A program made the position numbers and the translations under genes. DNA of 63,843 bases, the filler included, from Dugesia japonica (lineage: Eukaryota), in assembly GCA_001938525.1 (NCBI GenBank). It is 7 parts of 7 records of this genome, joined end to end, with 100 filler letters (N's around TTAATTAATTAA, not from the genome) between each part and the next. Parts side by side here need not be neighbours in the genome. Positions count along the whole stretch, not along the records: positions 18,950 to 28,611 come from MQRL01645037.1; 6 more parts are not named here. The stretch is one strand, 5' to 3'. Position 1 is the first letter of the stretch. Each line of letters begins with the position of its first letter. The notes beneath the pieces are model-generated. The model was not told where the DNA came from. It did not search any database and saw nothing but the letters and a program-made list of their open reading frames with translations. Shown piece by piece: positions 3,201-50,564 of this stretch.

Positions 3201-6200
3201 CTTCAGTTTTACATTTTTCCAATTCTTCAATAAATTGCTTTCTTATTTTTATAGTTTGTAAATTTTCAGAAATAATTTTAGAATTGTTTAATAATTTATC
3301 AATATTTTCTATATCGATTAATTTCGATTTTTCCAATTCAATTCTATCAGAAGAAATATATTCATTGGAATTATCAGGTTTTGACAGTTGATTCTTAGAT
3401 TCTAATAACTGATTTTGAATGTCAATAATAATTGTATCATTTTCAATATTCAATTCCAAATCGTTCTTTATATTTTCTAGATGAGCTTTATGAGAGTCTA
3501 TTGTTAATCTATTTGTTTCGTAAATCGATAAATTCTTATCAAAATCATCTTTCATTTCAACGGATATTTGGTGTATTTTATTTAATTGTTCATTGATTTT
3601 ATTGATTTTACTCGAAATTTCTTCAGGTAAAAGAAACTCTGAAAAAATCGGATTATTCTCTATTTCATTATTTAATTTATTCATTTGTACTGTTAATTCA
3701 TCGATTCTTCTGTTGATTTCTTCAATTTTTAAAGGTGATTCTACAGAATATAACCTTGTTGTTAAATTATCGATTTCATTTTGAAATTTATCAAGATTTG
3801 TATAAATTATTTGCAACGAAGTTTCTTTTTCTTTCTCTTTTTCAATTTTTCTATTTAACAANNNNNNNNNNNNNNNNNNNNNNNNNNNNNNNNNNNNNNN
3901 NNNNNNNNNNNNNNNNNNNNNNNNNNNNNNNNNNNNNNNNNNNNNNNNNNNNAAAGTTTTCATTTGTTCTTTTAATTCATTTAATTTATCTAGCTTCGAT
4001 TTTAAATTTTCTAAAGTTTCAAGGTTAATACTATCAATCAATATCCCATGAAGGTCATTTATTTGATTCAATTCTTCCTCTTTTTCTTTAATAAAGTTAT
4101 CAGTACTTTTTTCAATAACCATCAAGTTTTCCATTAAAGAGTAAACATTATTGATTTCTGATTGGCATAGCTTTGCATTAGAACTATCAAGAACAGAAAT
4201 TTCTTCAATTATTTCTTTCAATTTCTTTATTAAATTATCATTTTCATTTATGCATTTTAATATGTCACTTAAATTCATTGGATCATTTTTTTCTTTTGAT
4301 TTATCGAGTGTGTTTTGAAAATTCAATAAAACATTTTCTTTAATAGTTTTAAAATCACTCAACAAATGTTGAACTTTTTCTTCAGTATTTCGGATTTCTG
4401 TTTGCTGATTTTTAATTTTCAAAATAAAATTTTCCAGTTGTTTTATTACGTTTTTACATTGTTTGCATAAATCATGGATTTCAGAAACATTCAGTGAATT
4501 TCCACAAATCTCAGCATCATTATGAATATTATGAATATTTTCAATTAAATTCTTTATTTCTTCTAATCTGTTATTAAGCATTTCCATATTGGAATCAAAT
4601 ATAGATTCTTGTTGTTTAAATTCAATTTCATCCGATAATTTCTCGNNNNNNNNNNNNNNNNNNNNNNNNNNNNNNNNNNNNNNNNNNNNNNNNNNNNNNN
4701 NNNNNNNNNNNNNNNNNNNNNNNNNNNNNNNNNNNNNNNNNNNNNNNNNNNNNNNNNNNNNNNNNNNNNNNNTTTAAACTTTTTGATTGTATTTCAATTA
4801 GTTGACCAATATCTTTATTGATTTCTACAATCAATAATTCAATATCATTTACTAATGAATGAGAAGATTTAAAAATCGAATCAAGATTTTTGGAAATTCT
4901 ATTAGAAATCGATTTCACCTGTTCAGAAATATTAATCAATTTATTTTGCAAATTATTAAATATCATTTGTTTTTCCATTTCAATTTCCAATCTCGAATTT
5001 ATAGAATCATTAAAATGACTGATTTTTCCATCGATTATTTTTGCTTTGTTAAGAAATTCATCAATTTCATCAAATTTCGGATAGATTTTATTGATTACAA
5101 ATCCAATCAATTTATCTAAATTTTGGATTTTCTCTTTTTTGATTTTCAATAATTCCAATAAATCGATTTTTGAATTTTCAATTGGTTTATCTTCTTCATC
5201 TTTTATTAATTCATTATATTCTTCAATTATCTCATCGATTTTTTTATTTCCTTCTTTGATTATTTCAACAATTTCATTATACTTCTCTTTGAAATTATTC
5301 AACAATAACTCAATAGACTTTATAACAGGTTCACAAGTTACACTTTGTTTTAAATCAAAATTTTCAATCTTTTTCATGGTTTCATTTAAAATTATCAAAT
5401 TTTCTACTGAATTTTCCAGTTTTAGTTTCATTTCATTAATATTTGATAATGTTTCGTTTTTATCAATTTGTAAAAGAAAATTTGATAAACTTTCAATTGT
5501 GAAATTTTTAATATCATTAAAATTCTTTATTAAACTATTCAATTGATCTTGATCATCTTTAATTTTTTTAAATTGTTTTTCAATGTCTTGACTCATTTTT
5601 TCTAATTTATCAATTGTTTTAATACATTCATCTAGTAAACTTTCTATTTCATGAAATAACATAGATTCTTTACAGGTTGCTATTTGATCCTTAACTGCAT
5701 TGACATTGTTTAACATAATATTGATTTCATCAAATCTTTTGTTAAGTACTAATAAATCCATTTCGGAAATTAATTCATGCTCCAAAAAATCGATTTCATC
5801 AGAATATTTATTTAAATTTTCTCTACAATTTTGATATTGATTGAGTGATAAAATTATCGGATTAATTAGAGTTTTCGTGGAATTTATACATTGATCAATA
5901 TCTGCTGAAATAGCATTTTGTGTTACGGTTATTTCATCATTGAAAATAGGACTATTAAAATTGAGATTGTTTGATTTAATTTCTATAATTTCATTTATAC
6001 TTTTCTCTACGGTTTCTAGAGATAAATTTATATTTGAAAATAATGAATTTTCATTATGAACAGCTTCTTTTAAATATTCATTATTTTGATTGATTTTATT
6101 AATTATTAATTTTACATTTTCGTAAATTCTTCTCAACTCATCTTTAATATTATGGAAAATATTTTGATTTTCTATTTCAATTTCTATTCGGCAATTTATC

Positions 6201-9200
6201 CAATTATTATTTTCACTGATATTTACAGAGAGCACTTGAGCTTTATTAAGAAAATCATTAATTTCTACAAAATTTGGGTAGTTATTATTTAATATTTCAC
6301 TGAGTTGTTGATCTAAATTTTCAGTATTTTCTTTCATTATTTCTAAATCCTTCAATAAATCGATTTCTTCTTTGTNNNNNNNNNNNNNNNNNNNNNNNNN
6401 NNNNNNNNNNNNNNNNNNNNNNNNNNNNNNNNNNNNNNNNNNNNNNNNNNNNNNNNNNNNNNNNNNNNNNNNNNNNNNNNNNNNNNNNNNNNNNNNNNNN
6501 NNNNNNNNNNNNNNNNNNNNCTTTTCACAATTTAAAATTGATTTTGGATCTAAGTTAACGATATTATTTATCATATCTTTCATAACATTTAGATTATTAT
6601 CAGCGAAATCTAATGATTTCTCAATTGTTTCGAAATTTAAAATATCCTTCTTTTCATTGATTTTTGTATTTATTTCTACCAAATGATTGGATGTAGCATT
6701 TTTTATATTAATGAAATTAATTAAAAGATTTTGTAATTGTTCGTAGTCATCTTTTACTTTCTTTTGCTGAATTTCAATTTCCAATTTCATTTGATTTAAA
6801 TTTTCTTTATTCATAGCACTTTGATCAAATAAATCACAAATCTCTTGAACATTAATTGAGTTTCTACAAATTTCTAATTGGTTCTCAACATCCAAAACAT
6901 TACTCATCGTATTTTCGATTTCTTCTAATCGTTGATCCATATCTAAAATTGGATTGTTTTTTAAATAATCAATATCTTCAGTACATTTTTCGACATAAAA
7001 TCTCAAATTTGGATATTTATTCAACAAATCATTAATTGGTCCCAATGATGATTGCGTTGTGTTGATACAATTATTGATATTTTTCGATAGATTTGTTTGA
7101 ATGAGTGTAAATTTATCATTGAAAATAGGACTAACAAACGATAGATCATTGTTTTGAATTTTGAAAATTTTTTCTAAATCCATTAAAATTTTCTGCATTT
7201 CATCTTCAATATTATTTATTGAATTTTCAGGAGAAACTATTAAAATTTTTAATTGATCAATTGATCTATTAATATTATTAGAAATCAATTCCAATTCCGT
7301 ATTTAAATCCATTAATTTACTGTAATTTTCCATTGTAGATTTTATTTTATCTAAATCAACTAAATGTTTTTGTTGTTTTTCATCCAATTTATTTAAGAGT
7401 TTTCCATCATCATTTAAAAATTCTTCATTGATTTTATATTTAAAATTATCGATTTTATTTAATTGATTTTGGACATCATTCATCGCTTGTTTAATTAAAC
7501 TTGAAATGTCCTCGTTTTGAGATAGAGATTCATTCGTTAATGAAATTGTCGAATCACATGTTTCGATAACTCTATTAACCAACTCAATTTTTTCTTCATA
7601 ATTCTGATAATGATTTGATAATTTCAACTTCAAATTTTCAATAATATTATCTAATTCTGCAAAATTTTCATTGGGAAAATTAATTTTACAATTTTCTAAT
7701 TCAGATACTTGACAGTTCATTTGTTCTTCAAGTTGTTTTAATAATTCATAATTGTTTTCAATGACCTCTTTATCACTGTTTTCCCAACAAACCTTTTCAA
7801 ATTTATCGAGATATTCATTAAGACTACTTGTCAGTTCTATCCGTTGTTTTGTTAGTTGATCAAGTTTCTTTTTCTCTGTAGTAAATAAATGAATGTTTTC
7901 TTCTACAATAGTCTCGGTTATTTTCAATTCATTTTTCAAATTTTCAAATCTATCTTCAATGATTGATGACAAAGTCATTTGATTTCTTGAGAAATTTTCT
8001 TTCAAAATTTCCAACGATTCTTCTAATGGTAAAATCTGTTTTTGTAAATCGACAATATTTTTTCTTTGATTTAGTAATTGATTTTCATTATCTATCGGTT
8101 GATTTTTTATTTCCTTTTCAAAATTACTTTCCAAATTACTCAAATTTTCAACAAATACTTTACAATTTTCCATTAAATCGATTTTAGCAACACATAATTC
8201 TGAAATTTCCAAGCAATTTTTCAATGTTTTTTCAATTTGTTTGATTACTTTTTCATGAGATTGACAATTTGGAAATTTTTCCAGATGATTTTTGGATATT
8301 TCAGTATCGGATTTAATGGTTTCTAATTGTACTAAAGACGATTGTAGAAGAGAAATGATATCGTCAGCATATAATTGATTATCTGAATTTGTAATATCAT
8401 CAAATAATTGTAAACTAATACTATTGATAATTTGATTATTGCGCTCATTTTCCTGTTCGATTATTATTCCAAATTTCAAATCGATATTGTGATTAATATT
8501 TGTAATTTTGTCTTTGACAATATCGATTCCGGGATAAATATTAAAATTTTTCAAAAATTCTTTACCTTCTACAGGAATTATATCAATTAATTCAATTTCT
8601 TCAATTTTTTCTGTTGATTCATTAAGAATATTTTTTAATTCCAACATTTTTTCAATATTATCCATATTTATAAATTCAGTGGTATTTTCCAGATTTTCTA
8701 GTTTCGATAAATAAAAATTGATTTGATCCATTTTTACTTTATAATTGATTTCTACAGTTTGCATTATTGAATACATTTTGTCTAGATTTTCTATTGATAA
8801 ATTAGCATCTTTAAGTAATGGAACTTGGTCTTTTAATAGATAAATACAATTTTCTACAGAATGACAAAGTGGATAGATATCATTGGCAATTTCACAACAA
8901 AGTTCTTTCCATTTTTTAATGTCTTCAAGGGATTTAATATCAAATATACTCTGCTCTAATATATTCAGATTTCTTTGGGTATTTAATAAATTATCTGCAA
9001 TTTCTTTAACATCGGATTCATTAAAAATTTGATTATTGTCTTCATCAAAACTAGAATGAGCTACAACGATTTTCCTTAGGTTTTCATCTAATTTTTCCAA
9101 ATTATTATCAATTGAATTTTGGCATAGGTTTTTCTCTTCCAAAAGAACTGATTTAGCTTTATCAAGTGGAATTTTAATTATAGATTGTTTGAGTTCAGCA

Positions 9201-9870
9201 ATATCTGTTTCAATATTCAATACACAGTTTGATAGAATATTCTGAACAATTCCGATATTTAATTTCTTCACCGCTTCTTGTTTAAGTTCATCTAATTTTT
9301 CGAACTTTTCTTGACAAAAGTTTGACAGAAAATCTGTATAATCACGACTAAGTTGAGATTCATTTTGAGACTGAGTATTATAAATGAATTCTATTGATTT
9401 CTGAGCTTGAAGAAGTGTAGGATTCAGCATTTCATTTGATTTGATAATGTTCGGAACGATTGTTTCTTGTAGGTTTTCTACTGTCGCTTCTAAAATATCG
9501 ATTTCTTTTGTTATTGACAATCTTGTATTAATTAAAAATTTATTGTGTGTTAACACTTCAATTGATTTTGATTCAGCTAATTCACAGAGCTGTTGAATAT
9601 TCTCAATTGTAGGTAAAACCATATTGGCAATAGTTGGGTCTTTCAGTTCTAGTTCTGTGAATTTCGATTTAGTATTTTCTACCAGTTCTCTGTACATTTG
9701 TTGAATTTGTTCTACAATTCGTTCTTGTTGTCTTAGTTCCCCCAAAAAAATGTTTTCTTCTCCAATCGATATTAAATCAAATCGCTTAATTTGCGATTGA
9801 AAATCTCTAATCTTTTCCGTTTCATTTTCAGCTTCTTCTTTGAGTTTTATTGCCTGCGAAATGTTTGATC
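292..9870 (-). CDS. Internal exons of a giant coiled-coil / spectrin-repeat-like protein (nesprin/ANC-1/spectraplakin-like; family not resolved)
   Basis: ORFs 4628-9904 and 637-4587 join across the N gap 4646-4771 (…EKLSDEIEFKQQESIFDSNMEML…). Inferred exon 9870-646 (acceptor ttttag at 9871, donor CAG|gt at 645), 51-nt intron 595-645, exon 594-292 (SKRVDLESK…DKLM|gt). Over 3000 codons rich in E/K/N/I/L heptads with internal repeats. No CH or KASH domain visible. Confidence 0.8.
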
Positions 9871-10125
9871 CTAAAAATGTTAGCAACATTAAAAATGGAT
9901 TCAATAATATCTAAATTTTGACATTTTTATGTNATTATTTCTTGCAATACTTTGTTCTTTTGTATTAGCAAAAGCTTATAAAATTAATCTGAAATTCTAA
10001 TCGACAATTTTTTATTTACAATAATTTAAATGAGTATAACATTAGTATAAAATAAAATTTTATTCGAATTTTGGTGAAAAAACTAATAAAAATACCTTGT
10101 AAAATGAAAATATAAAATAATAATA

Positions 10126-14889: not shown

Positions 14890-15320
14890 AATATAACCTA
14901 ATAAACGAATATTAGTCCCAAAAACTGTTTGGCATGGTGATAATTCTGAATCTTCCCCCGCCGTGTTACGGATTACTAACATTGCTAATGGAAGATTTTC
15001 TAACCAGCTACGTTCAGCATTAGTTCATTGAGTCCCTAGAGCATTCTTTAGAGACCTTTGGAGTCTTTCTATTTTCTCATTGCACTGGGGGTGGTATGGT
15101 GCTGTATGCCTATGTTCAATTCTAAAATAATTGCAGAAATCGTTAAATTTATCAGATATAAATTGTCTACCATTGTTGCTTACTATTATCTCTGGTACTT
15201 TGAAGCGAAATATCGATTCTTTAGTTAAGGCTTTTAGCACGAATTCGGATGAAATTTCATTCAGAGCCACTACTTCTGTTCATGAAGTATCAGGATCAAT
15301 CATTGTTAGTATAAAGAAAT
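14890..15320 (-). pseudogene. Ty3/gypsy integrase (rve core) fragment
   Basis: IIVSNNGRQFIS…HTAPYHPQCNEKIERLQRSLK…WLENLPLAMLVIRNT…SPCQTVFG matches the DNGxQF / YHPQxNGxxER pattern; internal stop. Confidence 0.85.
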
Positions 15321-15339
15321 AATTATTATTTAATATTTT

Positions 15340-18949: not shown

Positions 18950-19099
18950 TATATGACTTTTAGTGAACAAATTAATTTGATTGGTCAATTATTTTAACTA
19001 TTAAAAACAAACCATAAAATACACCTGTATATATGAATACAAAGAAATACAAATGAAAAAACGAGTCAAATAAGTATGTATAATATTTATTAGTTTTCA

Positions 19100-19490
19100 C
19101 TCACTTCCGAAAAAAATCTGTTATTTTATCTTGGCATTTTTTCCTTTCATTTAGAATAATATTTTCAATTTTTTACCATTATTTTCTTAATTTACCATTA
19201 ATATTTTTCATCAAAAAAATTTCTAATTTTTTAACACAAAGACAAAAGCATCATGACTTGTAATAGGTAGTTCTTCAATTATTTCATTAATGTCTGATTT
19301 CTTGGAGTTTCTTTCAATTTGTTCAGATTGTTGAAAAACAATGCCGTTTTATCACAATTAAAAATGTAATTTTCGGCATATTTCTTTAATTTGACATTAA
19401 AACAGTCCTTAAACATTAGCACAAAATCTGACCAAATGAATGTTTCTTCTCCACAATTTTTTTTTTAATGGAAATAATTTCTGCTCAAAA
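19100..19490 (-). pseudogene. pogo/Tigger-like DDE transposase remnant
   Basis: LKKYAENYIFNCDKTALFF resembles the pogo IFNxDETALF motif; the rest is decayed. Confidence 0.4.
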
Positions 19491-20061
19491 ACAAACTAAA
19501 NNNNNNNNNNNNNNNNNNNNNNNNNNNNNNNNNNNNNNNNNNNNNNNNNNNNNNNNNNNTACATTTTAAAATTTTATCACTATTTGTATTATTTTGGGAG
19601 CGTTGATACTGAAACCATTGGTACAGTGTGCTTTGTTTCACTTAATGTAAATATCACATTTTCTTTGTAAATTTTCTCGAACACGGCCTTTTCATCATAA
19701 TTGACAAAACCAGCAAAAACTTTAAATTTTTTATTTACTGTTGTTGTTGGAACGTTAAATTCGTCCTCGTTTTTAATTTGGAATTGTTCATTATATGGAG
19801 TTAAACTAATCATAAAGTTTTAACAAATTATGTATTGTTTTACGAAATTATCAAAAACCGTGCTCACTGTTCACAATGTATGAATATAGAAATTTTCTAT
19901 AGAATTTTTGAGAAGTTGTATATTTTATTCATATGGAATGTTTACTGTATGCATTGTTCATTATACACATGCTTGACTGTATGTTTATATATTCAATTTC
20001 TACTAATATTTTATCTTAAATATTTTATCTGTGTAAGATTTTAATATCTAATTTATTTTAG

Positions 20062-20352
20062 TAAAACCTACTATAAGAAACATTACACACGTTATTTATC
20101 ATTACAGAAACGACAGTGTCTTTCTTCTATGCATTTTCAATCCATATTCAGTGCCTTATTTGAAAGGTAAGCTTGAATGGATTTATAATAATAAAACAAT
20201 TTCCTCAAAAAATGCTACATTCCATCATTACAATATTATACATTTCAATTACACTATTGAAAATCTTAATAAAACAAAATCCGGAATTTACAAATGTCAA
20301 TTAACAATGGGCAATTTCACAGCTTCCACTGCTTTTAATGTTATTTCTAAAA
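20062..20352 (+). CDS. Single immunoglobulin-domain exon (phase 1-1) of a cell-surface or secreted protein
   Basis: Acceptor tttag|, donor |gtatga; KPTIRNITH…VFLLC…LEWIYN…TIENLNKTKSGIYKCQ has the C…W…GxYxC Ig signature and about 7 N-glycosylation sequons. Confidence 0.75.
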
Positions 20353-21057
20353 GTATGAATATAATAGTTTAAATTTTTCAATAATTATTCTAGTTTTTTA
20401 ATTTCAAATGTTTTCAAAAGCATTTTTAAAATCATGTGTTTTATTATGTAAACATTTTTACACTGTTAATGATGTAAAACAAATTTATTCGTAACAATCA
20501 GATTAATATGATCAGAATAATTTATTAAAATTATTAATTGATAAAGACATTTGAGTTAATTTAGTTAAAATTATACAGTTATGAAAATCAATAATCTTTG
20601 AAATTTGTGTTCAATAGAATTATGCATAGATCGTGTATTAAATGGAATAATTGAAATACATCAACTTCACAATAACAAACACGCATCAAATAATCAATCA
20701 CTTAATTATATTTGTTGACACGAGTAGATCTTTTATTTAAAAGCTTTCCTTCCACAGCTGAAACTTCTGTTTAAATTCTATTTCTAGGTAGGCTTTCTTG
20801 CTCACGACCAAACATTTTGGAGGTTAAATTAAATTTATCTCGTTCCCACTCATTTTATAACATTTCAAATTTATTTGAGTTCACTTCAAGTGTGATTAAT
20901 TATTATATTCTCATAAGATTGTCATATGAAAGATTTATCCTTAAAATTCACTTTAAAAACTCAAAAAACAGACAACTTTTTCATAAAAATAAAAGAACGC
21001 CATTTAATAAAAATATTTATTTATGATTAGCTTATATATATATATATATATATAAAC

Positions 21058-23165
21058 CAAGGGGCTCAAAGGTTTATGTATGGGGGAACCATTTTTGAAA
21101 ATGTTAAAATACTGAAAAGCCACAAAATTTTCAACATAAACTTCAATTGAAATTTATTTTTATTGCTATAATTAATTAATAACTAAACACATTACTTTTT
21201 AAATTTTATACTATTAACAAATTTATTAAATACAAAGAAAACTTCAATAATTACATTTAAAAATTATTTGTAAAATCTGAAATATGTGTCCAAAAATTTA
21301 TCGTTTTTGCTTAACGAGAATTTTCAAATCGGGTTCATAATTTGTTAGATATGTCTTTAATAATTCAGTTAAATGGATATATGTTAGCTGTGAACGATGT
21401 TTATTTTTAACAAATTTTATAGTTGAATAAAATTATTTACAATTATAAGTGGTTCCGAATATAGACAATATTCGAACCACGAAATTAATTAAATTTGGAT
21501 ATTTGGATTCCGAAACAAGTTTCCAAAAGTCTATTATGGATTCTATTGATTTGTGCTCGATGATTATTGCTTCATCTGCCTGAATTTCTATCAACTCTAA
21601 TTTCAAGTTTGCAGAATTAGAAAGGATGACCTCAAGTATATTAAATCGTTCTTCAATAACATCCACTAGAAATGGATTTAAGAAAATTTTTATAGAAAAT
21701 TTCAAAGTTTTCAAATCTGAAAATCTCGACTTGAAACCTGAAAACAATTCTTTCAATTTATTTTGATATTCACTTAATTTTTCATTTGAAATTTTAAGTT
21801 GACTTTCTTTTAGACGAGGAAAATAATTTAAATCGTTAAAGATCAAATCTTTTTCATAAATTTGAATTTTCTTTTGAAAACTAAAAATTGTGTGGCACAG
21901 ATTGCTGACGAGTTTTTCTTTACCTTGTAATTCCAAATTCAGATTTTGTAAATGTTGCATGAAATCTGATAAAAAAATTATATCTAGTTTCCAATTATAA
22001 TTATTAAAATTACATAAAACATTATTTATCTGTCCTATAGTATATTTTTTGCTTTATCCGTTTTTTTGCTTCTTCTAGTAATTTTGTTTTATTTTGAAGA
22101 TAACAAGTAATTGGATTTAGTAGTTCTAGAAATTTATTTAATACATTATACGTGGATAACAACCTGACGATGTAATAAAAAAGCACACCATTTGAAATAT
22201 ATTTGTCTCAGGATTCAAAAAATTTTTAAACTGATGATGATTTTTTGCATTAGCTCGTATATAATTAATTGCATAGAAAACAGTATTCATGACATTTTAA
22301 TATTTGAAGTGCTTGGTAATGAGTTGTTCTCGATGCAATATGCAGTGTACTGAAAGATATTTGGGTATATTATGATATTTTATAAAGAGTCCTGTAAAGC
22401 CATTTATACTTCCTACCATAGCAGGAGTACCATAAGTTGCAATGCTTACCAATTTGTTAATAGGAATATCAAAATCGATTAACATTTTATCAAATGAATT
22501 TTTATTTTCGATACCGCGAGTTAATTCTTTAAGAGAAACTAAATCCAATAATTCTTCTTTTATAGTTATATCAGATAAAATAAAACGTATAAAAACCGCT
22601 AACTGTGGAGTACCATTAATATAAGTTGACTCATCTAGGGCCAAACTAAAGGCGTTATAGTTTTTAATATCAATTTTAAGTTTTTCAACTTTATCTAGAC
22701 ATATATCTGTAATACGTCTTTCTACAGTGGATCGAGATGTGGGAATTTTTGATATTTTTTTTATGTAATTTTGAATTCTCAGGATTTATAATTTTAACTA
22801 TATTTTTCAAATTTTTCTTAATAAATTCTCCTTCTATATATGGACGTTTGCCTCGTGTGATATTCCATGCCATGACATAACTTGCTTCCTTTAAATTGTC
22901 ATCTACATTGTTGAAAATGGAGAGAAAAAATTGTTGTTTCTCGAGTTCATTTTTAAATAGTTTAATTTTATCTTTTTTTAACTTTGTTTTTTCAGGGGAT
23001 GTGGAGTGGAAATCGGTGTGAATTGCATGGTAGTGCCTTCATAAATTTCAAAATTGAAAATGCATAATGGTTTTCCATTATTATTTATGAACAAAAAGTT
23101 TTGTTCCCACTTTTCATTAAAACTTCGTTTCTCTTCTTCATATTTTCTTTTTTAGCCTTATCCAT
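21058..23165 (-). mobile_element. Decayed hAT transposon, Charlie/SPIN (GTF2IRD2/EPM2AIP1-like) transposase
   Basis: RSFNEKWEQNFLF, LALDEST…QLAVFIR, HCILHREQL, HLQNLNLELQG, SIFGTTYNC motifs with stops and frameshifts; TIR-like CAAGGGGCTCAAA at 21058. Confidence 0.9.
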
Positions 23166-23231
23166 GATAACTCTAAAATATTTTTAAAATTTTTAGCAAT
23201 CATGAATAATAAAATACTAAATAATTAATGA

Positions 23232-24342
23232 TTATATGGAGAAGATGCCGTAAATTTCGTGAGTTTTATGCTAGATTATTATATGTATGGTAAGGCCTAT
23301 GGATGGCCAGAAAAAATCATGGTAATTCGATTGCCATTATATCTAAAAAGAACTGCTAGAGATGCGTACTGTCAGTTAGAGGCTTCGCAATTGGGTAGCT
23401 AGGCACATTGCAAAGATGCATTAGTCGAAAAATTAGTTAGTGAAGATGTGGGTAGAATTATGAGAAAGAAATTCTTTAATCGAGTACAAAATGAAGGAGA
23501 GTCGGTGAATGAATTCGCTTTTGAGTTGAGTACTTTAGCCGAGAAAGCCTTCAGATTGCGAGAAAACTAGGGAGATCATATTAAAAATATTTTTGCAAGA
23601 TCAATTTCTAATGGAAGCACAATCAAGTAATAGAACAGCGCTTAGTTTAGTAGATTATCAGGATTTTGATGATCTCGTTAAAAAAGCCAGACGAATTGAA
23701 GTAAATTCTGCGGCGACAACAAAAGCTCCTACAGTAAATTACACTGAGACGGCAAAATTTCAGAGACCTGAACCAGAAAGTCCAAATTTTAGAAAAGGGT
23801 CAAATTTCAAACCAAGAACATTTAATCCACCGTCGCCAAGGAATAATAGACCATCTCCAAAATATGAGAGAAATAGCAATTTTCAACAAAACGCGTTAAA
23901 AAGGACAGTGAAAGGTTTTAGGTGTCAACTTAAAGGACATACTGCAAATCAATGTCTTACAAAATTGGGTAATGGAGGAAATCGTGAAAGCAGGAGAACA
24001 ATACAATGTAATAATTGTGGACGAATTGGACATTTATATAGAGATTGTTACGCTCCAAAGTCGCGTTGTCCATCAACCTCTCCATCTCCGCAAAGAAATA
24101 CATTAAATTCCAAAGGCCAACAACAATGTTATTCATGTCAGAAATATGGTCATATTGCAAGATCATGTCCAAATAATGTTGATCGATTCCAAAAACCAAT
24201 TTTAAAGAAATCAGTCAAAATTGATAACAATCCTAGAGTTAATTCCACCTTTTCCCCATATAATCATGAAAGAATAAAATTTGAGGCAGAATTAGATGAA
24301 ATGAGACGAAGGACTCAGATAGCGATAACGAAAACTCAATGA
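23232..24342 (+). pseudogene. gag: Gag: capsid plus three CCHC zinc knuckles
   Basis: KAYGWPEK…LPLYLKRTARDAY…RVQNEGESVNEFAFELSTLAEKAF (major-homology-like region); knuckles (C>G)FRCQLKGHTANQC, CNNCGRIGHLYRDC, CYSCQKYGHIARSC. Confidence 0.9.
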
Positions 24343-24672
24343 TATTTTTAGAAAATGATCCACAAATTGGATGTGAAATACCAAATCTTCTTGGTCAAAT
24401 TTCACCTATGATAGACGATGTCGTAGTAAATAAAAGCCAAATTTTATACTCACATTTTTCAGCTAATATCGAAAATTGCGAATGAGATATGGAGGAGATT
24501 TTGGTAATTTTGCAATAGTTAATAAAACTGAATTTGCCTTTAGAAAAATTAGAAAATGTTATGAAGAAATGTATTTATAATTGTAATAATGGAGCTAAAC
24601 ACGTTTTGGAATTGAAACTCATCATGACAAAGATTGGACAAGAAATGTGCAAAAATTTCGTGGTTAGAAGAT

Positions 24673-24886
24673 GTATATGTAGTGTTTATTGATAACAATG
24701 GAGATAAACTTACAAAACCTATTAGTGCTTATAGTACAGTCAGAGACTTATTTCAGATGATTGGTGAATCCAAGGAATTGAAAATTGTGAAAATGAAATT
24801 TGCTAATNAAACTTTGGAGGATATAGATGCTTATATTGTGGATCTAGAAATGATCCCCGGAATGGAAAATGAAGTTACGATTTTAC
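24673..24886 (+). pseudogene. Ubiquitin-like (beta-grasp) domain within the retroelement polyprotein
   Basis: VYVVFIDNNGDKLTKPISAYSTVRDLFQMI…MKFANxTLEDIDAYIVDLEM…EVTIL parallels ubiquitin IFVKTLTGKTITLEV…TIENVK…LIFAGKQLEDGRTLSDYNI…TLHL; same frame as the zinc-knuckle ORF. Confidence 0.55.
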
Positions 24887-25627
24887 AATTTCACGAGATA
24901 ATAAAGACGGTACCTCAAGCAACAGAGTTGATTTTATTACGTAAATTACAATGCGAATTAGAGAGTAAAAATGATGATAAAATCCAAATGGTACTGCATG
25001 ACATATTGAGCATGCCAAAAGGAGGCAGTATGAAACGTGATTTTATCTAATTATTGGTACCGTATTTGTATACAATGCATAAAAATAAAATTAAACTAGA
25101 AATGTAAAAATTTGGAAAAGAGTTTAGAGAGGAAAAAGCCAATTTTCCTCCTTTTATACTAAAATAGACATGGATCTATGTGGAATTAAATATTGTAAAC
25201 TAAACAAGTTTAACGAAAATTCAGCGAACAAGAGATAATTGTGGACTTTCGCGAATTGTTGATGAGATGATGAAAATCTCAGAGAACCAATGTAACGTTA
25301 GGGATCGCATTGAGTGCAAAGAACTTTTAATGGGATTACAAAGTGAGATATACCCATGATAGAGAATAAAAAGTATTAAAAGAATTTATACTAGAGATAT
25401 GGCGGACAACTTATTCGAATTTGTCCAATTATAATGATTGAGATAAATAAAACTCCTGACGAAGACAAGGTCGAAATATCGATTTGTTATCCAATATCAA
25501 TAATTAAAACCTAAATTTTGATCNNNNNNNNNNNNNNNNNNNNNNNNNNNNNNNNNNNNNNNNNNNNNNNNNNNNNNNNNNNNNNNNNNNNNNNNNNNNN
25601 NNNNNNNNNNNNNNNNNNNNNNNNNNT

Positions 25628-25888
25628 GGATTGGCATTTCTAATTCAGCAAATGGGAATTTATATTTCAGTTGATTATCAAAATATGGGCGATATGATTG
25701 AAGAAGTATTGAAAATAATCCTAAAATATATGTATCCGTTTGTCCAAAAACCAGGAGGCTGGGAATTTCTGGGAAACGTGAGAAAAATCGAACGAAAAAG
25801 TTCTATGTTTTCAACGGGATTCAGAGGTGTCTCACCGTGGTTAATAATAATGATTCTTACGATTGGGTTGGTAAATTACACAACTTCG
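25628..25888 (+). pseudogene. Bcl-2-like C-terminal half (BH2) plus hydrophobic anchor
   Basis: GLAFLIQQMG…IILKYMYPFVQKPGGWEFL resembles the BH2 motif (WIxxxGGWxxF) with Bcl-2-like spacing from the post-BH1 AF, followed by a basic linker and PWLIIMILTIGLV; BH1 would fall in the N gap 25524-25626. Confidence 0.55.
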
Positions 25889-28008
25889 TTAACAGCATAT
25901 GACTGTTCACAAACTGAATTAGGAAAAGTTTATTCTTTAGTTGATGTAGCAGAATGTCCAGAAGCCCACCAATTGAAACTGAAAACTGAGGAAAATGTAC
26001 CTTATTATATCTATCAAGAGTTAGGATTTTGTCGGACAACAGTTAGAGAATGCATAGTTAAACGAACAACTTTTATCTTTTATTGTGAAAAATGGAGTCA
26101 TTCATCATTGATATAGTTTAAATCAATGCCTAGGCCAGTGGACATAACGCAAGAAAATTGCGAATCGGCTTTTTAGACTAAAGAGATTAAAATTAATGCA
26201 GAAATTAAACTATCTGCTAAAAAGAATTTTATTATCCGATAATCATTTACAGTAAAAAGGAAGCTTATGAGTAATGGAGATTGTACTGGAGAACCTTATA
26301 AAATTGGGAATAATATTGTTGATAAAGTAATGGTAGTTGAAGAGTACTCGACTGAGTTACGAGAATTTGAAGGGACTTTTAAAGATGTAACAGGAAAATT
26401 ACAAACTCATGCGTTTTGTGATATATATAGCACTAGCTGTCATACAGGAAAATCTATGCTTGTGTATAAAGTTAAAGTAAAAGAATGTAATTTAGCTTAA
26501 TTGAGACAGACAGAGTTTATTGAAATTACTGGAGAGCAATTTAAAATTAATCTAGACGTCTCTAATTTCCCCAAGGATAAGGGAAACAGCAGTAGACAAA
26601 CATTACCTGTTGAAAAAAGTAAAACACAAACTGTGCTGGTGACATTAGTAAAAGAAGAAGTTATGAGATTTATTAGAAAGGATCCAATTGTGAAATGTGG
26701 TAAAACATTGTATGAAACGAATTATAAAAGGGTGTATGTGTCAAAAACAAAAATGGAAGATGCAAAAGAGAATATACATGTTTCGGAAGTAAAGCTAACA
26801 CAATATTTTAATAATAAGATAGACTTTCTTTTTCATTTTCATACTAAAACAATATCAAACATATATAGTGAAATAATACTAAATGACTGTAAATCAAATA
26901 GAGAAATTTTACGGAATCGGATGGCAATGGTAATGAATAATCCAAATGTGGTTGCACCTTTGCTTATAGTTGAAAATTGAGTATTTGCTCGAGTAATGAG
27001 GAAAGTATTATATAGCTACAAATGTAAAGAGGTGTCAGTCAAACTAATGAAATATGATGAGTGTACTAACGGATTGCCAGTCAACGTAGGTGGAATGTTG
27101 AGATTCATGGAACCTATAACAAGAGTCTTATTAGATAAAGATACAAAACCAAAAAATTGTATTGCAATCGATTATAAGCACCTTTGTATAAATTAACTCC
27201 AGATACGTGAATATCACTGCCGGATCGAAAGCAAGTTAAAAAACCGGAAAAACTGGAAATGACAAAATTAGACTATTTACTAAATTTTACAGCATTGGGA
27301 AAATTGTCATCTTCAGGAATCTATTCAACTGAAAACATTGAGAACGCGAGACGGAATTTGCTATTCCCATCAAAAAGAGAAAGAATTATAACGGAATTTG
27401 TAGACAGGATACTACCTAGTAGAGCGGAAAGTGTAAATTACGATTATTTATTCTCTCCAGATCATTACAAAAAAACTACTTTAAATACTATGAAAAATAT
27501 ATGAGGACATTTTTTGTATTTTGGACAAGTAACGTCCAGCTTTATTGGAGGGTATTTGTTATGGAAATTCTCAAGAGTAGTGATTTCTTACGTATTATCT
27601 ACGTACAGATTATATACCATGTTTGGGCTTTCATTGAAATTAATTGTGGGATGTATACCATTCCTTGCAAAATTTTTAATAATTACTCACCAATTTAATG
27701 AAATGAGGAGGATAAAGGAGCAAGTTTCGAGTAGCAAACAAAATAAAAGGAAAAAGAAACACATAAATCGGAATAAGCATGTCAAATTCCAAGATAAAAC
27801 TGACGATAGTAGCAGTACCGAGAATGATAACACTAACAGTGCAAGTACTAGTGGTACATTGAACGTGGATAATGTTGTAAATAGCACTCAATCGTTATTT
27901 TCAGTTGAGGATTGGAACACTTATAAAATAAAACGTATTCCAGAGATGATTAAAGATCCAAATTACTATCAATCTCAGCCACCATGTTATCCAATGGGGT
28001 CATTATAA
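25889..28008 (+). pseudogene. env: Chuvirus/Jingchuvirales-like envelope fusion glycoprotein
   Basis: AYDC…SLVDVAEC…VREC…YC.KWSHSS, GDCTG, KCG…ETNY, YFNNKIDF, YKCKEVSV…CTNGLPV…FMEPITRVL, SGIYS…RRNLLFP, then hydrophobic segments FGQVTSSFIGGYLLW…MFGLSLKLIVG; several stops and one frameshift near 27155. Confidence 0.8.
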
Positions 28009-28107
28009 GAAATGAAATTTATTGAAATTAATGAGTTTGGTAATGATAAAAAGAAAATAGATATTGAAACAGAAAGATGAAATATTTTGGGATTACCGAC
28101 TAATTAT

Positions 28108-28290
28108 GTGTTGATGAAAATCGCAAATTTCGGCAGACAACCAAAAATCACAGTGCAATTAAATGGAATTTCTATAAAAGCAATACTAGATTCAGGTTGT
28201 AGTGTAACTATTATTTCAGAGGAAATTCTAGATCCAGGAGATCTAGTTAATATGACAACTACAGAAGAAATAATTCGATCAATGTCAAAA
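28108..28290 (+). pseudogene. Retropepsin-type aspartic protease, N-terminal part
   Basis: PKITVQLNGISIKAILDSGCSVTIISE (DSG at 28189-28197), same frame as the Env C-terminus; homology is lost after ~28290. Confidence 0.85.
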
Positions 28291-28611
28291 ATGCTAAAGA
28301 TTTGGTTGTTGTTGGACAAAAACTTGGTCTTTATATTGTCTAAAAGACTTATGAGGTTGGATGCATGGTTTGTCTTAGAAGTGTGGTAGCGCCAAGAAAC
28401 AGTGGTATGAGTTATCGTGTGGTGTTTTTTGGGGGTTGTAGGTTTGTATGTGGTTGGGTTAGGGTTATAGGTATGTGATTTTCATTGTATGTGTGAGTAG
28501 ATGGATAGTGGCAGTCCTCACCACGCACACATTTAGTACCCCCCCCCGCCGTGACGTAACGTAATGAAATTTAATCCTAATGTATTTAGTTGGGAATTTA
28601 AAAATTGCATC

Positions 28612-29573: not shown

Positions 29574-30835
29574 TCAAACAAAATCATTGAATAATAAGTA
29601 TTTCTCAAAGAATTGATCTTCCATTAATTGATCAATTGTTGCTCTCTTTTTTGGTTCTTTTTTCACACAACTATCGATAAAATTGAATAAATATTCTGGT
29701 TGGTTTATTCTAGTTTTATCATATTCAATTGTCTGTGATTCCTTGATCTTTTGAACTATTTCAGATTCTTTTAATCGAGGAAATAATTGACCGTCTTTAA
29801 TTAAATAATAAAATAAATAATAATCAATATAATAATCACGTGTGATAATTTCTATCATAATAACACCAAGTGACCACACATCAACACTCGCATCATAAGG
29901 TTTACTTTCCAATATTTCTGGTGCAACATATGTCAAGATACCATCTCTATGTTTACATTTATCAACGTCTTCATCATCAAGATGATTCAAATATTCAGTC
30001 ATATTGAAACTTAATAATTTGACATCACGATTGCCATCAATCCAAATATCGATTGCTAATATAATCATTATACTTCATTTACATAATTAATAATATTACG
30101 ATTCAAGTCTTTCATAATTATATTATGATTGTGCAAATGTTTCAGCCCTGCTAGGATCTGATATGCCCATTTAGATATTTCATATGTTGATGTTTCATAG
30201 TTTACAAGAAAGGTTTTCATTGGTTTCTTCATTAAAAAATAGTTATTAATAAATATCATAATTTATACGAACAAATGCAACCTTTGTCGCATTCTCCATT
30301 TCTATATAGACACGGTTTTTACCAATATAAATATCAAACAGTTTCATAAATCTTGAATGAGATTTGGTTATTTTAAACATTTGTAAATCGTCTATCAAAA
30401 TCCTTGATAAATCGTTATTATGTGCATTTTCCATGTATTTCATGTCGTATCCTTTCAACAAGGCTGGCCTAATTTTGTTTGTCCGAGTAAACAGATTAAT
30501 AGGATCAAAATCACTCAGTATTTGAATATCTTTATCTTCATCTAAACTATATTTTATAATTAATTTTTAATTTATAATAAATATTAATTAATTAAATGAT
30601 TAATAAATACACACCTTTTGAAATAACAAAATTCCACCAATGATTTACTATCAATATTATATTCATAAATGAATTTATCATTTTGCAGTACTGTTTTATT
30701 TAAAAATATAACAAAATCATTGGTTGCCATTTTGTGTTGTATTTTCTGAATAGATTTGTTGATAATGTTTGATACTTTTTCGGATTTTGAGAATTCAATT
30801 GATATTGTTTCTTTATCAGTGAAAATTGATTTCAT
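29574..30835 (-). CDS. Ubiquitin-like domain + Ser/Thr pseudokinase, multi-exon; 5' end uncertain
   Basis: Introns 30542-30612 (donor uncertain), 30227-30281, 30056-30099 and 29795-29839 restore one frame: ALLK…EMENAT…YQILAGLKHLHNHNIIMKDLNPIDIWID…VKLLSFN…GILTYVAPEIL…DVWSLGV…PKKRAT. First exon TISIEF…VLQNDKFIYEYNIDSKSLVEF is Ubl-like. Confidence 0.75.
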
Positions 30836-32199
30836 TGTAATATTTTGTATTTCTCTATTTTATAAAAAATATGATAAGTTTTATTGCTCTTTTTAATCAT
30901 TTAACATTTGCAAACTACAATCAATACAAAATATCAAAAGTAATCTTATACAAGTCTAAGTTAAATTTGTTATGAAAAATAAATTGTTTCAAATATCATT
31001 TACACTATTATATATAAAATAAATCCAAAGTTTCTGAATTTCATATTAAAATTAAAACCGACGGTTAAATAACTTTGGAAAACTTCAAATAATATTTTAC
31101 TGAGATGTTTTATACATAAAGGTGTTCTAGACTTTGAACCTGTTTTAGAAATTCGTTGATTTGACCTTTGGATCAGGCTTGAACCTTTATATCCGAAATA
31201 ATTCACGCGAGAATTCAAACTTTCTTAGGCAAGTCGGTATTATTAGCAAGAAAAACGCTATCTTCATCAAAAATATATTTTAAACAAATAAAAACTTATT
31301 AGAAAAGTTTTAATATTCAAACAAATATGCTCTATAATTATTTTAATTATTTTCTTGAAATATTTTTAATTTCAAGGATTTTATAAATATTTTTATTGGG
31401 CATATTAATTTGAAATTAAACAATTTAAATACCATTCTCACAGGTATTATACATGTATTGCCATGATATTGTTAGACACGACGGATCTCATGGTTAATCT
31501 TTGAGTCAGTCAAGCGTTACGGTGAAAAGTTATTAAAGATCAAATAATGAAAAGTTGCGCCACCCAAAATATTGATCAGATTAAGTCTGTCTTGGTAACA
31601 TTTTATTGTAAATTAAAAAGTACTTATACATTGTCTAAAGTACATTGACCATAAAATGCTTCGTACCCACATAAACGTTGTTCAAGTTCAAAAAAAGACT
31701 ATTTAAAATTGAATTTAAAACGAGTAGATACATGCTATGGAAACTGTCATGATAACGATGGATGTGTAATGACGCACGGATCTCATGGACAGACTTCAGT
31801 TCTTAGGGATCAAAAAATAAAAACTTTCCCGGCATAAAATTTCATTGGATCAAGTCGAACGCCGATGAAGTGTTTTAGAAAATTGGTTTTCAAATTTAGA
31901 TACAAATGTTTTCCTAACGGCTATATTGATAAAATAAAGATTTTGACCCTATGGTGGGCGATTCCAATTTTTTCTATATACTGCTTAAAGAACTTGTTAG
32001 ATGAATCTGTAACAGTCATTTGAATTCAATACTATGGAATTGTCAATTAGAAACTCCTATAGATTGTCTAAAGGATTGATTTTGAAATATTTTGATGATT
32101 ACGATTAAATTACATAAGAAAAAACAAAGGACTTTTAAAATGAATTGTAAATAGATAAAATTTATTTTATAAAGATTATGAAAAATTTTAAAATGCATT

Positions 32200-33849: not shown

Positions 33850-34816
33850 GAGTATTTACTTCTCGGATATAAATTTTTTTCTATGTTCCCAAAAATTATT
33901 TCATCACTTTCATCATTTTCCTCTTCATAAATGGCATGGACTTGTTTGATACGACTCCTATCTTTTGTTTTATGTCCGCTTTTAAAATTGTGTCTTTCTT
34001 TTAATCTTGGCTTGTTCATGTTCAAATAACATTTTTCAGCTCAGTGACTTGGGCTTTTACATTTATTGCATATAATTTCTGTGCACATCCTTCTGATGTG
34101 ACCAATCTTACCACACCCAAAACATTTTAGAGGCTCCTTGTCTGGACAGTTTCTACTTAAATGCCCTTTCATGTGGCAAGTCCAGCATTCTACTTGAGAA
34201 TTTTTCGGACACTCTTTTTGTCTGCTCATAACTCTGGCATGCACAACACTTAGGTTCTGTTTTTTCCTGTTCTTCTTTTGTTGATGGTATCTTCTCTACA
34301 TGCAACTACCACGTTACACTTTACTTCATTAATAGGTTCTCTTCTTTCTATTTTTGAGTTTCATTTTATATATTTTACTTTATCCAATTTTCACATGATT
34401 ATCTTTTTTTCTGCTTTTAATTATTAAAATTTTTGAAAAGATCTTTTCTCTTGTCAGATTTAAAAATTACTAAATATTTATCGACTAAATCTTCCACTAT
34501 TTTAAAAACACCACAAGTCCTTCATTAGCATGTCAATAGTTTACAAGATTGTGGAAATATTTTATTACGTCACTATTGCTCTCGAAAGCTAATTGCAATC
34601 TTCCTTGATATCTAGCAACTTTTTAAAATATTTTTGCATATGCCTCTATTAGTTCTTTATCAAGCATACATGTTGTTAAGCTCTCCGGATCTTTTTTATT
34701 AACGATGCCCTTTGTCTCGAAGTATATTTCACACCGTTTCTAGATCATCGCCTCTGCAAAATATCTTTGACAACACTCTCTCTATGATGGAATCGGAGTT
34801 TACCACTTTCACCATG
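33850..34816 (-). pseudogene. gag: Ty3/gypsy gag remnant with three zinc knuckles
   Basis: CWTCHMKGHLSRNC, CFGCGKIGHIRRMC, CNKCKSPSH*; upstream region decayed. Confidence 0.75.
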
Positions 34817-42875: not shown

Positions 42876-43981
42876 TGGCGTCAGAAGCTGAATTGGTTAT
42901 TGTAAAAAACTAAAGCATTAAATCGTAACTAAAGAAGAAGCGCCTATCACTGTTTTATCTAGATGAATACCGATAGGACTTGGGGATAAAGTTGATAATT
43001 TAGTTGAAGATTTATTAAAAAAGAAATAATCAGGAAAAGACCGTGGAATGTACCTTTAGTGTGTATCACTAAGGCAATGGTGGCATATTATTATGTGCAG
43101 ATTACCGGCAGTTAAACTTAATCACAACCAGACCAATATATCCAATTCCAGAAACTNATCAGCTTTTTGATGCACTGGGTGGAGCAAAGATATTTAGCGT
43201 TTTAGACTTATTTAATGGATAATATAATGTCGAAGAAATAAGGTGGCTAAAAAACAGCATTCTTTACTAGAAGAGGGCAGTATGAATTTAATAGAATGCC
43301 ATTTGGCCTGAGTTCAGCCCCAGCAATATTTCAACGACTTATGCATCTGATATTGCAAAATGAAAATTGGGAACAATGTTTTATTTATCTGGACGATGTT
43401 TTGATATTTGGAAACTTGTATGAACAACATCTCAGTCGATTGGAAGTAGTTTTAGTTATAATAGAAGAATTGGGAGTTGAATTAAAACCTACAAATGTAA
43501 TGTTATGCTAAAGGAAGTTTCGTATCTGGGACATAGAATTACGATAGAAGGTATAAAAAATAATCTAATAAAGATAGAAAAGTTCAAAATTGGTCAAAAC
43601 CAGGGTGTTACTCAAATCTACATTCTTTTAAAGCTTTCTGTAAATATTATAGAAAATTTATAAAAGATTTCGCGTACGTCGTTCAACCTTTAGAAACTAT
43701 ACTGAAACAAGACAAACAAAGAATAAATGAGAAATAAAGCAATAAACCAATAATTTTGGATGCTGAAGGAAAAAAAGCATTTTAAAAACATACAGGAACT
43801 TTTAACAACAGCCACAGTTATATCTTATCCTCTTAAAGAAGGTATGTTCATATTAGACACAGATGCAAGTCACAGTCATATTAGATGAATCTTAAGCTAA
43901 TTTCAAAATGGAGATGAAAAAGTCATCGCATATACGTCGAAGAAGCTGACAAATTCAGAATTGAAATATTGTGTTACTCGC
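42876..43981 (+). mobile_element. pol: Ty3/gypsy remnant: PBS-like site, reverse transcriptase and RNase H
   Basis: CA|TGGCGTCAGAAG PBS-like; CADYRQLN, MPFGLSSAPAIFQR, YLDD, FILDTDAS, VIAYTSKKL; many stops and frameshifts. Confidence 0.9.
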
Positions 43982-45715: not shown

Positions 45716-46830
45716 TATTAGGTGTGTAAATATGACTCCATTGAAATTTACGATTTAAAAATCAATGGCAATGACAAAATACAGAGTAAATTTTTATTAC
45801 AAATAACTTTCATTATTAATAAACACATTTTCCCCAATTTGGACCAATTCAAATAAAATTCTATCATAAAAGAGTTGATCTTGTTTTGAGGCATTCCGAT
45901 CATCTTGACATTTTTTAACATCTTTGTAATATGAGAAGCTCTGCTCCAGCATACTGCGTCCCATCGACCAAAAAGTGCTAATACTATAAAGTAATATTTG
46001 GTGAGTACGGCGGGTATTGTAAGACTTCACATTTCAGCTTTTCGACAGGTTTTGCTACATCAGCCTGGGTGTTGTCATGCAGCAAGATCACTTTTCTATG
46101 CCTGTGAACCAATTATAGTCGCTTTCCTGTGAGTTCATGATTTAATTTCATTATTTGATTTAATAAAGCTTTTCAGTAATTTCTTTCTATTGGTTTCAGT
46201 AGATCAAAGTATAGAATATCTTTTTGACCCTCTATACACATAAAATTATTTTTTCCATGAAAATTGCGTTTTGCAATTAAATTTGACGGCTGGTTTGGAT
46301 CATACCACGACCTTTTAAACTTTTAATTACCAAATAAATTTATTTTTCATATCTAGGACTATATGATGAAGGAAAGAATTTTTTCTTATCCTTTCTATTA
46401 AAATTTTGTAAGTATTTTTTATCTACTGTCGGTTTCTTTGTGTCAACCCATAAGGCACTCATTTTTCTTCATTCCTAATCTTTCTTATATTACTTAAGTA
46501 GTTTGAAATAGCTTGTTGAGTTACATTTAGTGAAGAAGTCATTTAATCTTACCTTTTAGTGTTGTCTTTGTTAAATAACACTTCATGTTCATCGTCTTCA
46601 AATTTAATTGGTAGTTTTCCATACTCCTTGTCGTTCACACCAAAATTTCTGGTTTTGAATCGTAAAAGCCCTTCTCGCAAGTTTTTTTTAGCCAATGCAT
46701 GGTTTACATAAGCCTCTACAAGCAATTTATGTGCACCAATAGTACTTTTTTTTAAATTGAACATAAAAAGTAATGCTTCTCGTAAATGACATTTTCCAGG
46801 CACAAATGTTCACGTCTAAATTTCAAATTA
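45716..46830 (-). mobile_element. Decayed mariner transposon, Mos1 (mauritiana)-like
   Basis: HLREALLFMFNLKKS…HKLLVEAY…RFKTRNFGVNDKEYGKLP.KFED…VTQQAISN, LLHDN, PPYSP; TIR-like TA|TTAGGTGTGTAAATATGA at 45716. Confidence 0.85.
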
Positions 46831-47035: not shown

Positions 47036-48060
47036 TCAAAGCCTCACACGCAATTCTTTCAAAATAGTTACCAAAACTGTTAACTCAGCAATGTTTATTT
47101 TGCCTTTTTTATTTTTGCAGCAACAGGCATGATCTAAAACCGAACTTTTCCTGTTCAATTGCATATGCTCGCTAACACGTGTGCGAAGATGACGTTTTGT
47201 CTCTCCAATGTTCGTGGCATCACACCTGTTATAATTAAATTGATAAACTAGGTTAGCGAGCAAATTAGCGAGTAGTAGATTTTTTGCTTAAATAACTGGA
47301 GGTTGTTTTTAGTGAAAATTAATATAAATTTATTATCATCAAAATATTTCATGAGTGATGCTTTTAATGATTTAGATCCTTCCGAGATGGTAGTTTTATA
47401 GTAATTTTTTGATTATTTTTAATTTTTTCTTCTTGGTCATTATTTGATGTTGAGCACAGTTTGTTTAGAGTACAACTTATATTATTATAAATCGTTTTTT
47501 GGTTATATCCATTAGCTCGAAGACTACTATTTAATCTGTTAAGACCATCATCAGCAATCTCAAAGCTTGATGATATACACCACACTCGATGAACCAAACC
47601 TTTTATTGATCCATTCTTATATCGATCATCACAAAAACTTTTAGGAGTGGTGTCTGTCCTGTGTCTGTTGGTTTTTTTATAACGTGAAGTATTATAGTTG
47701 CGACCCTGTCTACAAACAAGAACATCTAAGAATTGTAGTTTACCTTCTTTTTCAATTTCTTTAGTGAATTGCATATTTGGATGAAGACTGTTCATATATT
47801 CAAGGAAAGGTCATATATCTACTCGGTCTTTAAAAATAAGGAAGATATCATCTACGTATCTTTTGTATTCTATGGGTTGATTACCAGAAAAATTAGTAAT
47901 ACTAGACTCAATTTTAGACAAAAATTATGATGCTAATGTTGGTGCCACCTTAGAACCCATTGCAACACCATCTTTTTGAGTGAACCAGTCATTATTGAAT
48001 AAAAAATTAACAACTTTCCACACTTCTTTTTAAGTTGAATTAAATCTTTCCAAGAAGTTA
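47036..48060 (-). mobile_element. Penelope-like element (RT + GIY-YIG endonuclease), decayed
   Basis: QKDGVAMGS, YKRYVDDIF, NSLHPNMQFTKEIEKEGKLQFLDV, LVYQF…CDATNIGETKRHLRTRVSEH. Confidence 0.9.

Positions 48061-50494: not shown

Positions 50495-50564
<70 letters not shown>

Follow-up and report, generated by a model that had tools for sequence, protein, structure and literature searches.

Capture of Bcl-2 is familiar from DNA viruses, in which viral Bcl-2 proteins are encoded by separate genes. A preliminary description of a 63,843-nucleotide stretch of Dugesia japonica DNA (the window, filler included) placed a Bcl-2-like domain inside a retrotransposon polyprotein, and this raises the question whether the domain is genuine and, if so, what it could do there. 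The Bcl-2-like segment is carried by a broken polyprotein on the plus strand (23240 to 28290), with the domain order gag, ubiquitin-like, Bcl-2-like, gB-type env and protease (Table 1). The distance from the Gag start to the protease is about 5.0 kb, and about 575 aa separate the last zinc knuckle from env. Neither RT nor integrase was found after the protease in the element's piece, where homology stops near 28290, and self-BLAST of the window gave neither an LTR pair nor a second copy of the element. By identity and architecture this is very probably the dead remnant of a GAG-ENV-POL Ty3/gypsy element of errantivirus type, compact and Burro-like, in whose polyprotein a captured Bcl-2-fold domain was an accessory module. 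There are 19 stops in the assigned frames outside the uncertain stretch before the gap, together with several frame changes, and 7 more stops within that stretch in the frame holding RDMADNL. With at least 19 stops the copy is dead and contributes nothing functional, and what is said of function below refers to live elements.

Table 1. Features of the element, in window positions
Feature	Position	Strand	Basis and remarks
Gag capsid-like region	23244..23706	+	tblastn of relatives P0007 (E 8e-12) and P0010 (E 7e-14); stops and a frame change near 23560
Gag CCHC zinc knuckles	23899..24231	+	Pfam zf-CCHC E 2.6e-7; tblastn of P0001 and P0010
Helical segment before ubiquitin-like domain	24468..24548	+	weak match to the relatives' four-helix module, 7 of 500 shuffles as high
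Ubiquitin/SUMO-like domain	24721..24882	+	relatives-only HMM E 0.0016 among 1,278 pieces; 0 of 500 shuffles
Helical segment earlier taken for a second Bcl-2 copy	24892..25230	+	weak likeness to helical module; none to Bcl-2
Presumed N-terminal half of Bcl-2-like domain	25231..25523	+	by position only; heavily decayed; contains RDMADNL
Assembly gap, 103 N	25524..25626	.	N count need not equal real length
Bcl-2-like helices 5-8 with BH2 (F-x4-GGW)	25628..25771	+	relatives' profile; fold from relative P0085
Basic linker, n-region of signal sequence	25772..25837	+	sequence
Internal env signal peptide	25838..25888	+	12-residue hydrophobic core; small-x-small site two residues before AYDC as putative cleavage position
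gB-type envelope glycoprotein (Monjiviricetes_fusion, PF24664)	25889..27792	+	Pfam E 1.3e-42 and 2.7e-31 in two frames; stops plus a frame change near 27155; C-terminal membrane segments
Aspartyl protease, N-terminal part	28138..28248	+	Pfam RVP E 0.01, below cut-off; tblastn of relatives

The motifs lie where they had been described: LKYMYPFVQKPGGWEFL at 25721-25771, RDMADNL at 25393-25413 in a different frame from LKYMYPFVQKPGGWEFL, then the gap, the basic linker and a hydrophobic helix, the last at 25838-25873 and thereby just past the end first given for the domain (25800). GGW occurs once in the 127,682 six-frame residues of the window. The assignment of the window's segment to Bcl-2 is indirect, via relatives, because its own fragment gave no Pfam Bcl-2 match, no PDB sequence match at E<=10 and no Atlas match; a homologue search with the fragment (word index, proteins of 285-2000 aa) yielded 0 of 133 candidates. 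An HMM was built from five relatives only, with env and the window sequence left out. Across the window's six frames this HMM ranked 25628-25765 top (domain E 0.0022), the same region reached E 0.0017 among 1,278 pieces, and the segment scored 18.6 bits, a value attained by none of 500 shuffles. A frameshift-aware scan peaked at the same segment, with 41.6 as compared to 27.3 for the next peak. On these profiles, the prediction holds that 25628-25771 represents helices 5-8, including BH2, of a Bcl-2-fold domain in a decayed polyprotein.

The relatives were collected by phmmer with 25628-27190 against 1.84 billion representatives, which gave 774 proteins at E<=0.001, and the best 150 of the 774 were examined. 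In the closest among these, a long open polyprotein has env placed after gag and ahead of the protease. Of the 26 of the 150 that were scanned in Pfam, four contain RT, RNase H and integrase in full, and the gypsy order PR-RT-RH-IN was seen in P0004, P0006, P0013 and P0014. A [GQ]GW-bearing domain stands just before env in 5 of the best 150 (P0002, P0003, P0010, P0011 and P0085), many other matches among the 150 being fragments without the region before env. Leave-one-out profiles recovered each of the five carriers (E 1e-4 to 4e-14), and the open reading frames that share the domain with P0085 are only 18-25% identical to it. Homologue searches from P0085 and from the six-row alignment returned P0085 alone (1 of 148 and 1 of 984, respectively), and the alignment stayed at six rows.

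These data bear on whether the GGW segment is Bcl-2-derived at all. GGW as a coincidence is contradicted by the segment being the best match in the window, at the exact syntenic position and with no shuffle scoring as high. A segment of other origin, or a domain that is a functionless passenger, would be consistent with the missing direct match of the window's own fragment and with an N-terminal half that fails to align (see below), but the same rank, position and shuffles, together with the recovery of all five relatives by leave-one-out profiles, speak against it, and a fold kept in open frames at 18-25% identity implies long purifying selection. We regard this pair of explanations as very improbable, and non-homology is largely refuted already.

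Long open polyproteins without a Bcl-2 domain before env were also found (P0001, P0006, P0007, P0013, P0014 and P0017), while P0004 and P0005 are N-terminally incomplete, and their non-carrier status covers only the 150 residues in front of env. In an env tree of 18 rows, with P0085 left out as too short, the five carriers tested did not form one clade (p-AU 0.012), and all five fell inside a moderately supported group of 10 (89/86) together with five non-carriers. A quick env tree of 42 rows was similar. One gain followed by losses and module swapping would both fit this distribution, and the patchy occurrence among relatives argues that the Bcl-2-like domain is an accessory. Two further peculiarities of the relatives are tandem protease-like domains (two or more) after env in P0001, P0002, P0004, P0005 and P0017, with up to 4 stretches in P0001, and the joining of mitochondrial ribosomal protein L47 to the env-family signal peptide and start in P0018, which may be a gene-model or assembly chimera.

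Comparison with known Bcl-2 folds was made on the relative P0085, modelled with AlphaFold from an alignment of 6 rows without any cellular Bcl-2 (pLDDT 70.3, pTM 0.67). The model is a helical bundle around a central hydrophobic helix 5, as in the Bcl-2 fold, and matched Hydra Bcl-2-4 with Z 13.6 (rmsd 3.1, 132 aligned). Rows 1-36 of the structure comparison are Bcl-2-family proteins or poxviral proteins that we take to have the Bcl-2 fold; the title of row 37 is uninformative, and the first unrelated row has Z 5.2. Canonical BH3-binding members reached Z 11-13.6 as compared to 5.5-7.5 for A52, B14, A46 and A49. Foldseek with the same model agreed in ranking, with all 39 listed PDB rows belonging to the Bcl-2 family, and its best values (E 3.1e-3 in PDB, E 1.3e-2 in the viral library) did not reach E<=0.001 in either library. 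When the six-row profile was run against PDB sequences, Bcl-xL was found with E 7e-4 and 59 of the 60 best rows were of the Bcl-2 family; the remaining row, at rank 1, is a designed coiled coil. The Atlas model of P0085, made from the single sequence, was of low quality (pLDDT 0.38) and did not find Bcl-2. Pfam PF00452 scored P0003 with 20.1 bits (E 0.001) and P0085 with 16.5 bits (E 0.012), both below the curated cut-off of 31.4 bits, and gave no match at E<=0.05 in the other three carriers. P0085 is 17% identical to the window's piece; the fold is modelled for P0085, the profile links the window's helices 5-8 to it, and the fold is therefore transferred to the window by profile. Taken together, the relatives' profile and the predicted fold of a relative support the original proposal of a Bcl-2-like domain embedded in a retrotransposon polyprotein, and place this domain immediately before env.

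The conservation of the BH motifs is uneven. Canonical BH2 reads W-x4-GGW, and the window has F-x4-GGW, which aligns to BH2 of Bcl-xL and in which GW is invariant in 6 of 6 rows. BH1 had been expected to be hidden in the gap and to be recognizable as an NWGR-like motif. The window's own BH1 position falls in the gap or just before it. With the register fixed by alignment to Bcl-xL, the Gly position of NWGR is occupied by D, N, S, T and N in the five relatives (Gly kept in 0 of 5), the Gly and the Trp are both gone in all five, and only the Arg position remains basic throughout (K, K, K, K and R). Since the five relatives are without NWGR and one of them is predicted to fold as Bcl-2, no NWGR is to be expected in the gap and its absence would not refute the fold. 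The weak BH3-like character ascribed to RDMADNL did not find support, as the region does not align significantly to the relatives in any frame: for 25220-25523 in three frames against four relatives, all 12 pairwise tests gave p 0.21-0.94, profile tests gave p 0.34-0.46 and the lowest p among 16 anchored tests was 0.08. To the eye, helices 1-4 of P0085 seem to recur in 25300-25520, spread over frame changes, and the gap would then be short; these tests lent the resemblance no support. BH3 motifs take the form LxxxGD, and the four relatives whose sequence includes helix 2 show neither a motif of this type nor a GD core.

The hydrophobic helix after the basic linker had been taken for the tail anchor of the Bcl-2-like domain. 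In 22 rows (21 picked from the 150 relatives, plus the window) a hydrophobic segment with [AG][YF]DC is present in 20, of which 14 are without GGW, and three of the 20 are stand-alone glycoproteins that start 21-28 aa before [AG][YF]DC. The distance from GGW to AYDC is 47 aa in the window and 51-81 aa in the five relatives. Because the helix is also found in relatives without the GGW domain and in stand-alone glycoproteins, it is the env signal peptide and not the Bcl-2 domain's own tail anchor. Nevertheless, the env signal peptide could tether the Bcl-2-like domain at the ER. The position of the domain, which in all 6 of 6 carriers lies 47-81 aa ahead of where env starts, and its synthesis in a 1:1 ratio to Gag and Env, given a polyprotein translated as a single unit, would also suit a structural, matrix-like spacer whose Bcl-2-fold membrane affinity keeps Gag beside Env at the ER during assembly. 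The six long open polyproteins named above have no such domain there, so assembly does not need it, and a spacer function appears improbable.

The ubiquitin-like neighbour was followed in the same relatives. The model of P0001 (pLDDT 81.8) is predicted to fold as SUMO/ubiquitin (Z 9.6 to SUMO1, rmsd 1.5, 75 aligned), and Pfam ubiquitin matched P0010 with E 0.031. A leave-one-out test of the ubiquitin-like module was strong in only 1 of 5 relatives. The domain is also present where the Bcl-2 domain is not (P0001, P0006). In P0001, P0006, P0010 and P0011 the ubiquitin-like domain has a module of four helices packed in front of it (pLDDT in this part of the model about 80-87), and the window has possible weak matches to this module on both sides of its ubiquitin-like domain (24468-24548 and 24892-25230). 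A TFIIS-N-like identity of the module was considered, and the fold searches were filled by ubiquitin matches instead. The second of these segments covers what had been suggested, around 24930 and 25150, as a second decayed Bcl-2 copy. It has no Bcl-2 likeness and flanks the ubiquitin/SUMO-like domain: 24930-25150 scored 0.3 bits on the Bcl-2-like profile, with 193-199 of 500 shuffles as high, and a copy there was rejected. In a pairwise test against the piece after the gap, 41 of 1000 shuffles were as high, with few identities and no GGW in the alignment. On the helical-module HMM, 24892-25230 was equalled by 2-5 of 500 shuffles, and when it was compared directly with 24360-24626, 997 of 1000 shuffles scored as high, which speaks for no likeness between the two.

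What the domain would do in live elements can be outlined from topology. The N-terminal part of the polyprotein (Gag, ubiquitin-like and Bcl-2-like) would stay cytosolic, while the internal env signal sequence would insert into the ER and signal peptidase would free Env into the lumen. The cut signal peptide would then be a de facto tail anchor, holding the Bcl-2-like domain on the cytosolic face of the ER, where it may dampen the death of the producing cell via host Bcl-2-family or BH3 partners, using a divergent groove. We tentatively consider such an ER-tethered cell-death modulator the likeliest role, because the predicted structure is nearer to the BH3-binding members, because BH2 persists together with a basic residue in BH1, and because BIR domains occur in Burro. 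The proposed anti-apoptotic role is plausible but weakened by the loss of the BH1 glycine. Against a role in cell death stand this replacement in 5 of 5 relatives and the lack of an LxxxGD-type BH3 in the four covering helix 2; in addition, Bak acts at mitochondria, and an ER signal peptide would not put the domain there. A double role of a signal sequence is known from flavivirus anchor C, which is also the signal of prM (PMC7601889), and vaccinia F1L inhibits apoptosis despite highly divergent BH motifs (PMC2836074), with LGVR replacing NWGR in variola F1L (PMC9609553). The BH1 Gly is described there as very strongly conserved; its mutation abolishes pro-survival activity in Bcl-2 and KSHV Bcl-2, and F1L keeps it (PMC2836074, PMC9609553).

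Loss of both the BH1 Gly and Trp in all five relatives, with a ubiquitin/SUMO-like domain next door, could alternatively point to a Bcl-2 fold repurposed as a non-apoptotic scaffold that blocks host antiviral or ubiquitin-dependent signalling in concert with its ubiquitin-like neighbour. Poxviral A46, A52 and B14 have such roles in blocking host signalling. However, by structure the domain resembles canonical members (Z 11-13.6) more than A52, B14 and A46 (Z 5.7-7.5), BH2 and the basic BH1 residue are retained and some relatives have the ubiquitin-like domain but no Bcl-2 domain; the scaffold is thus somewhat unlikely, even though Burro also carries MATH/TRAF domains (PMC6431247). A wider and more speculative picture, rather doubtful as a whole, would make the domain an old, repeatedly lost or swapped accessory of the whole compact GAG-ENV-POL lineage and no peculiarity of Burro, possibly beyond planarians, with the env signal peptide as anchor, the BH1 glycine lost throughout and a non-canonical ER function parallel to that of poxviral Bcl-2-like immune antagonists. 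Relative to viral Bcl-2 proteins (ASFV A179L, KSHV Bcl-2, BHRF1, avipox CNP058 and the divergent F1L, M11L, N1 and A52), the domain has the same predicted helical bundle; in both cases a selfish element has captured it from a host, and a hydrophobic segment comes next. The domain differs in being embedded in a retroelement polyprotein, in having an env signal peptide as putative anchor and in the loss of the BH1 XXGR glycine.

A Bcl-2-bearing layout is already published for Burro. The Burro/GYPSM1 elements of planarians are gypsy-like LTR retrotransposons of giant size (PMC6431247, reviewing Grohme 2018 and Jurka 2007). Following Grohme 2018, that review places Gag, Ubi/SUMO-like, BCL2-like, env and protease within a single frame, and it also describes BIR apoptosis-inhibitor and MATH/TRAF domains. 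By this description, the element shares with Burro the order of Gag with CCHC knuckles, Ubi/SUMO-like, BCL2-like, mononegavirus-fusion-related env and protease, and decayed copies with stops and frameshifts are reported there too. It is set apart by size, since Burro ORF1 has 4,873-5,140 aa (PMC6431247) as compared to about 575 aa from last knuckle to env here. BIR, MATH/TRAF, ankyrin, SMC and AAA domains were not found in the element (Pfam, E<=1). Compared with Burro as described, the element is a compact Burro-like variant and not a member, as the layout matches and the giant ORF does not.

GAG-ENV-POL elements with gB-type env are described from Nematoda, Bryozoa and Platyhelminthes in PMC13524379. 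The element resembles these errantiviruses in its gB-type env between gag and pol and in having relatives with the gypsy order of pol domains, and differs in that this copy lacks the part of pol that would follow the protease. Neither "bcl" nor "burro" occurs in the main text of that paper or its 7 supplementary files. In the available text, PMC11410931 mentions Burro once, the Dugesia preprint 10.64898/2025.12.11.693146 does not contain it and PMC6114478 adds nothing on Bcl-2 in LTR elements; Troyka elements, as presented in the accessible part of PMC12440569, are unrelated. In a literature search that left most subscription papers and Repbase outside its range, the motif annotation of Burro, which came without a functional test, was the only report of Bcl-2 in retrotransposons. 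New here are the predicted full Bcl-2 fold, the domain in compact elements and its presence or absence among close relatives. Compact carriers and natural non-carriers should make the suggestion of apoptosis meddling easier to test, as it concerns a single 150-aa domain.

The surroundings of the element deserve a few remarks. Six identical linkers (44 N, a 12-base six-frame-stop spacer, 44 N) at 10126, 18850, 28612, 37225, 46898 and 55876 recur every 8.5-9.7 kb, and the stretch is probably a concatenation in which only 18950-28611 is contiguous with the element. The pieces are probably unrelated, so neighbourhood across linkers is no evidence. GC is mostly 0.17-0.34 (AT-rich). A decayed hAT transposon (DUF4371, hAT dimerisation domain) at 21433-23038 (-) ends about 200 bases upstream of gag, at the place expected for the 5' LTR. 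Across a linker from the element, 29574-30859 (-) holds a gene for a protein with a ubiquitin-like domain at its N-terminus (PF00240 E 2e-5) plus a protein kinase domain (E 2e-19) that is divergent and in which no HRD or DFG was seen. Other gypsy-type fragments (RT-RNase H, integrase, gag zinc knuckles) lie on other pieces at 43076-43978 (+), 14911-15327 (-) and 34041-34295 (-). The regions 46549-46809, 47036-47810, 61585-62471 (-) and 20052-20372 (+) hold a mariner-type HTH fragment, fragments with a Penelope-like RT/GIY-YIG look and an Ig-domain exon; the Penelope-like identity is presumed, and two pieces were scanned without a matching Pfam family. Two very long, intronless-looking coiled-coil ORFs of 1,378 and 1,760 aa at 637-9910 (-) have no Pfam family above cut-off and are presumably nesprin/ANC-1-like, and talin rod exons (I/LWEQ, Talin_IBS2B) are present at 50237-53541 (+).
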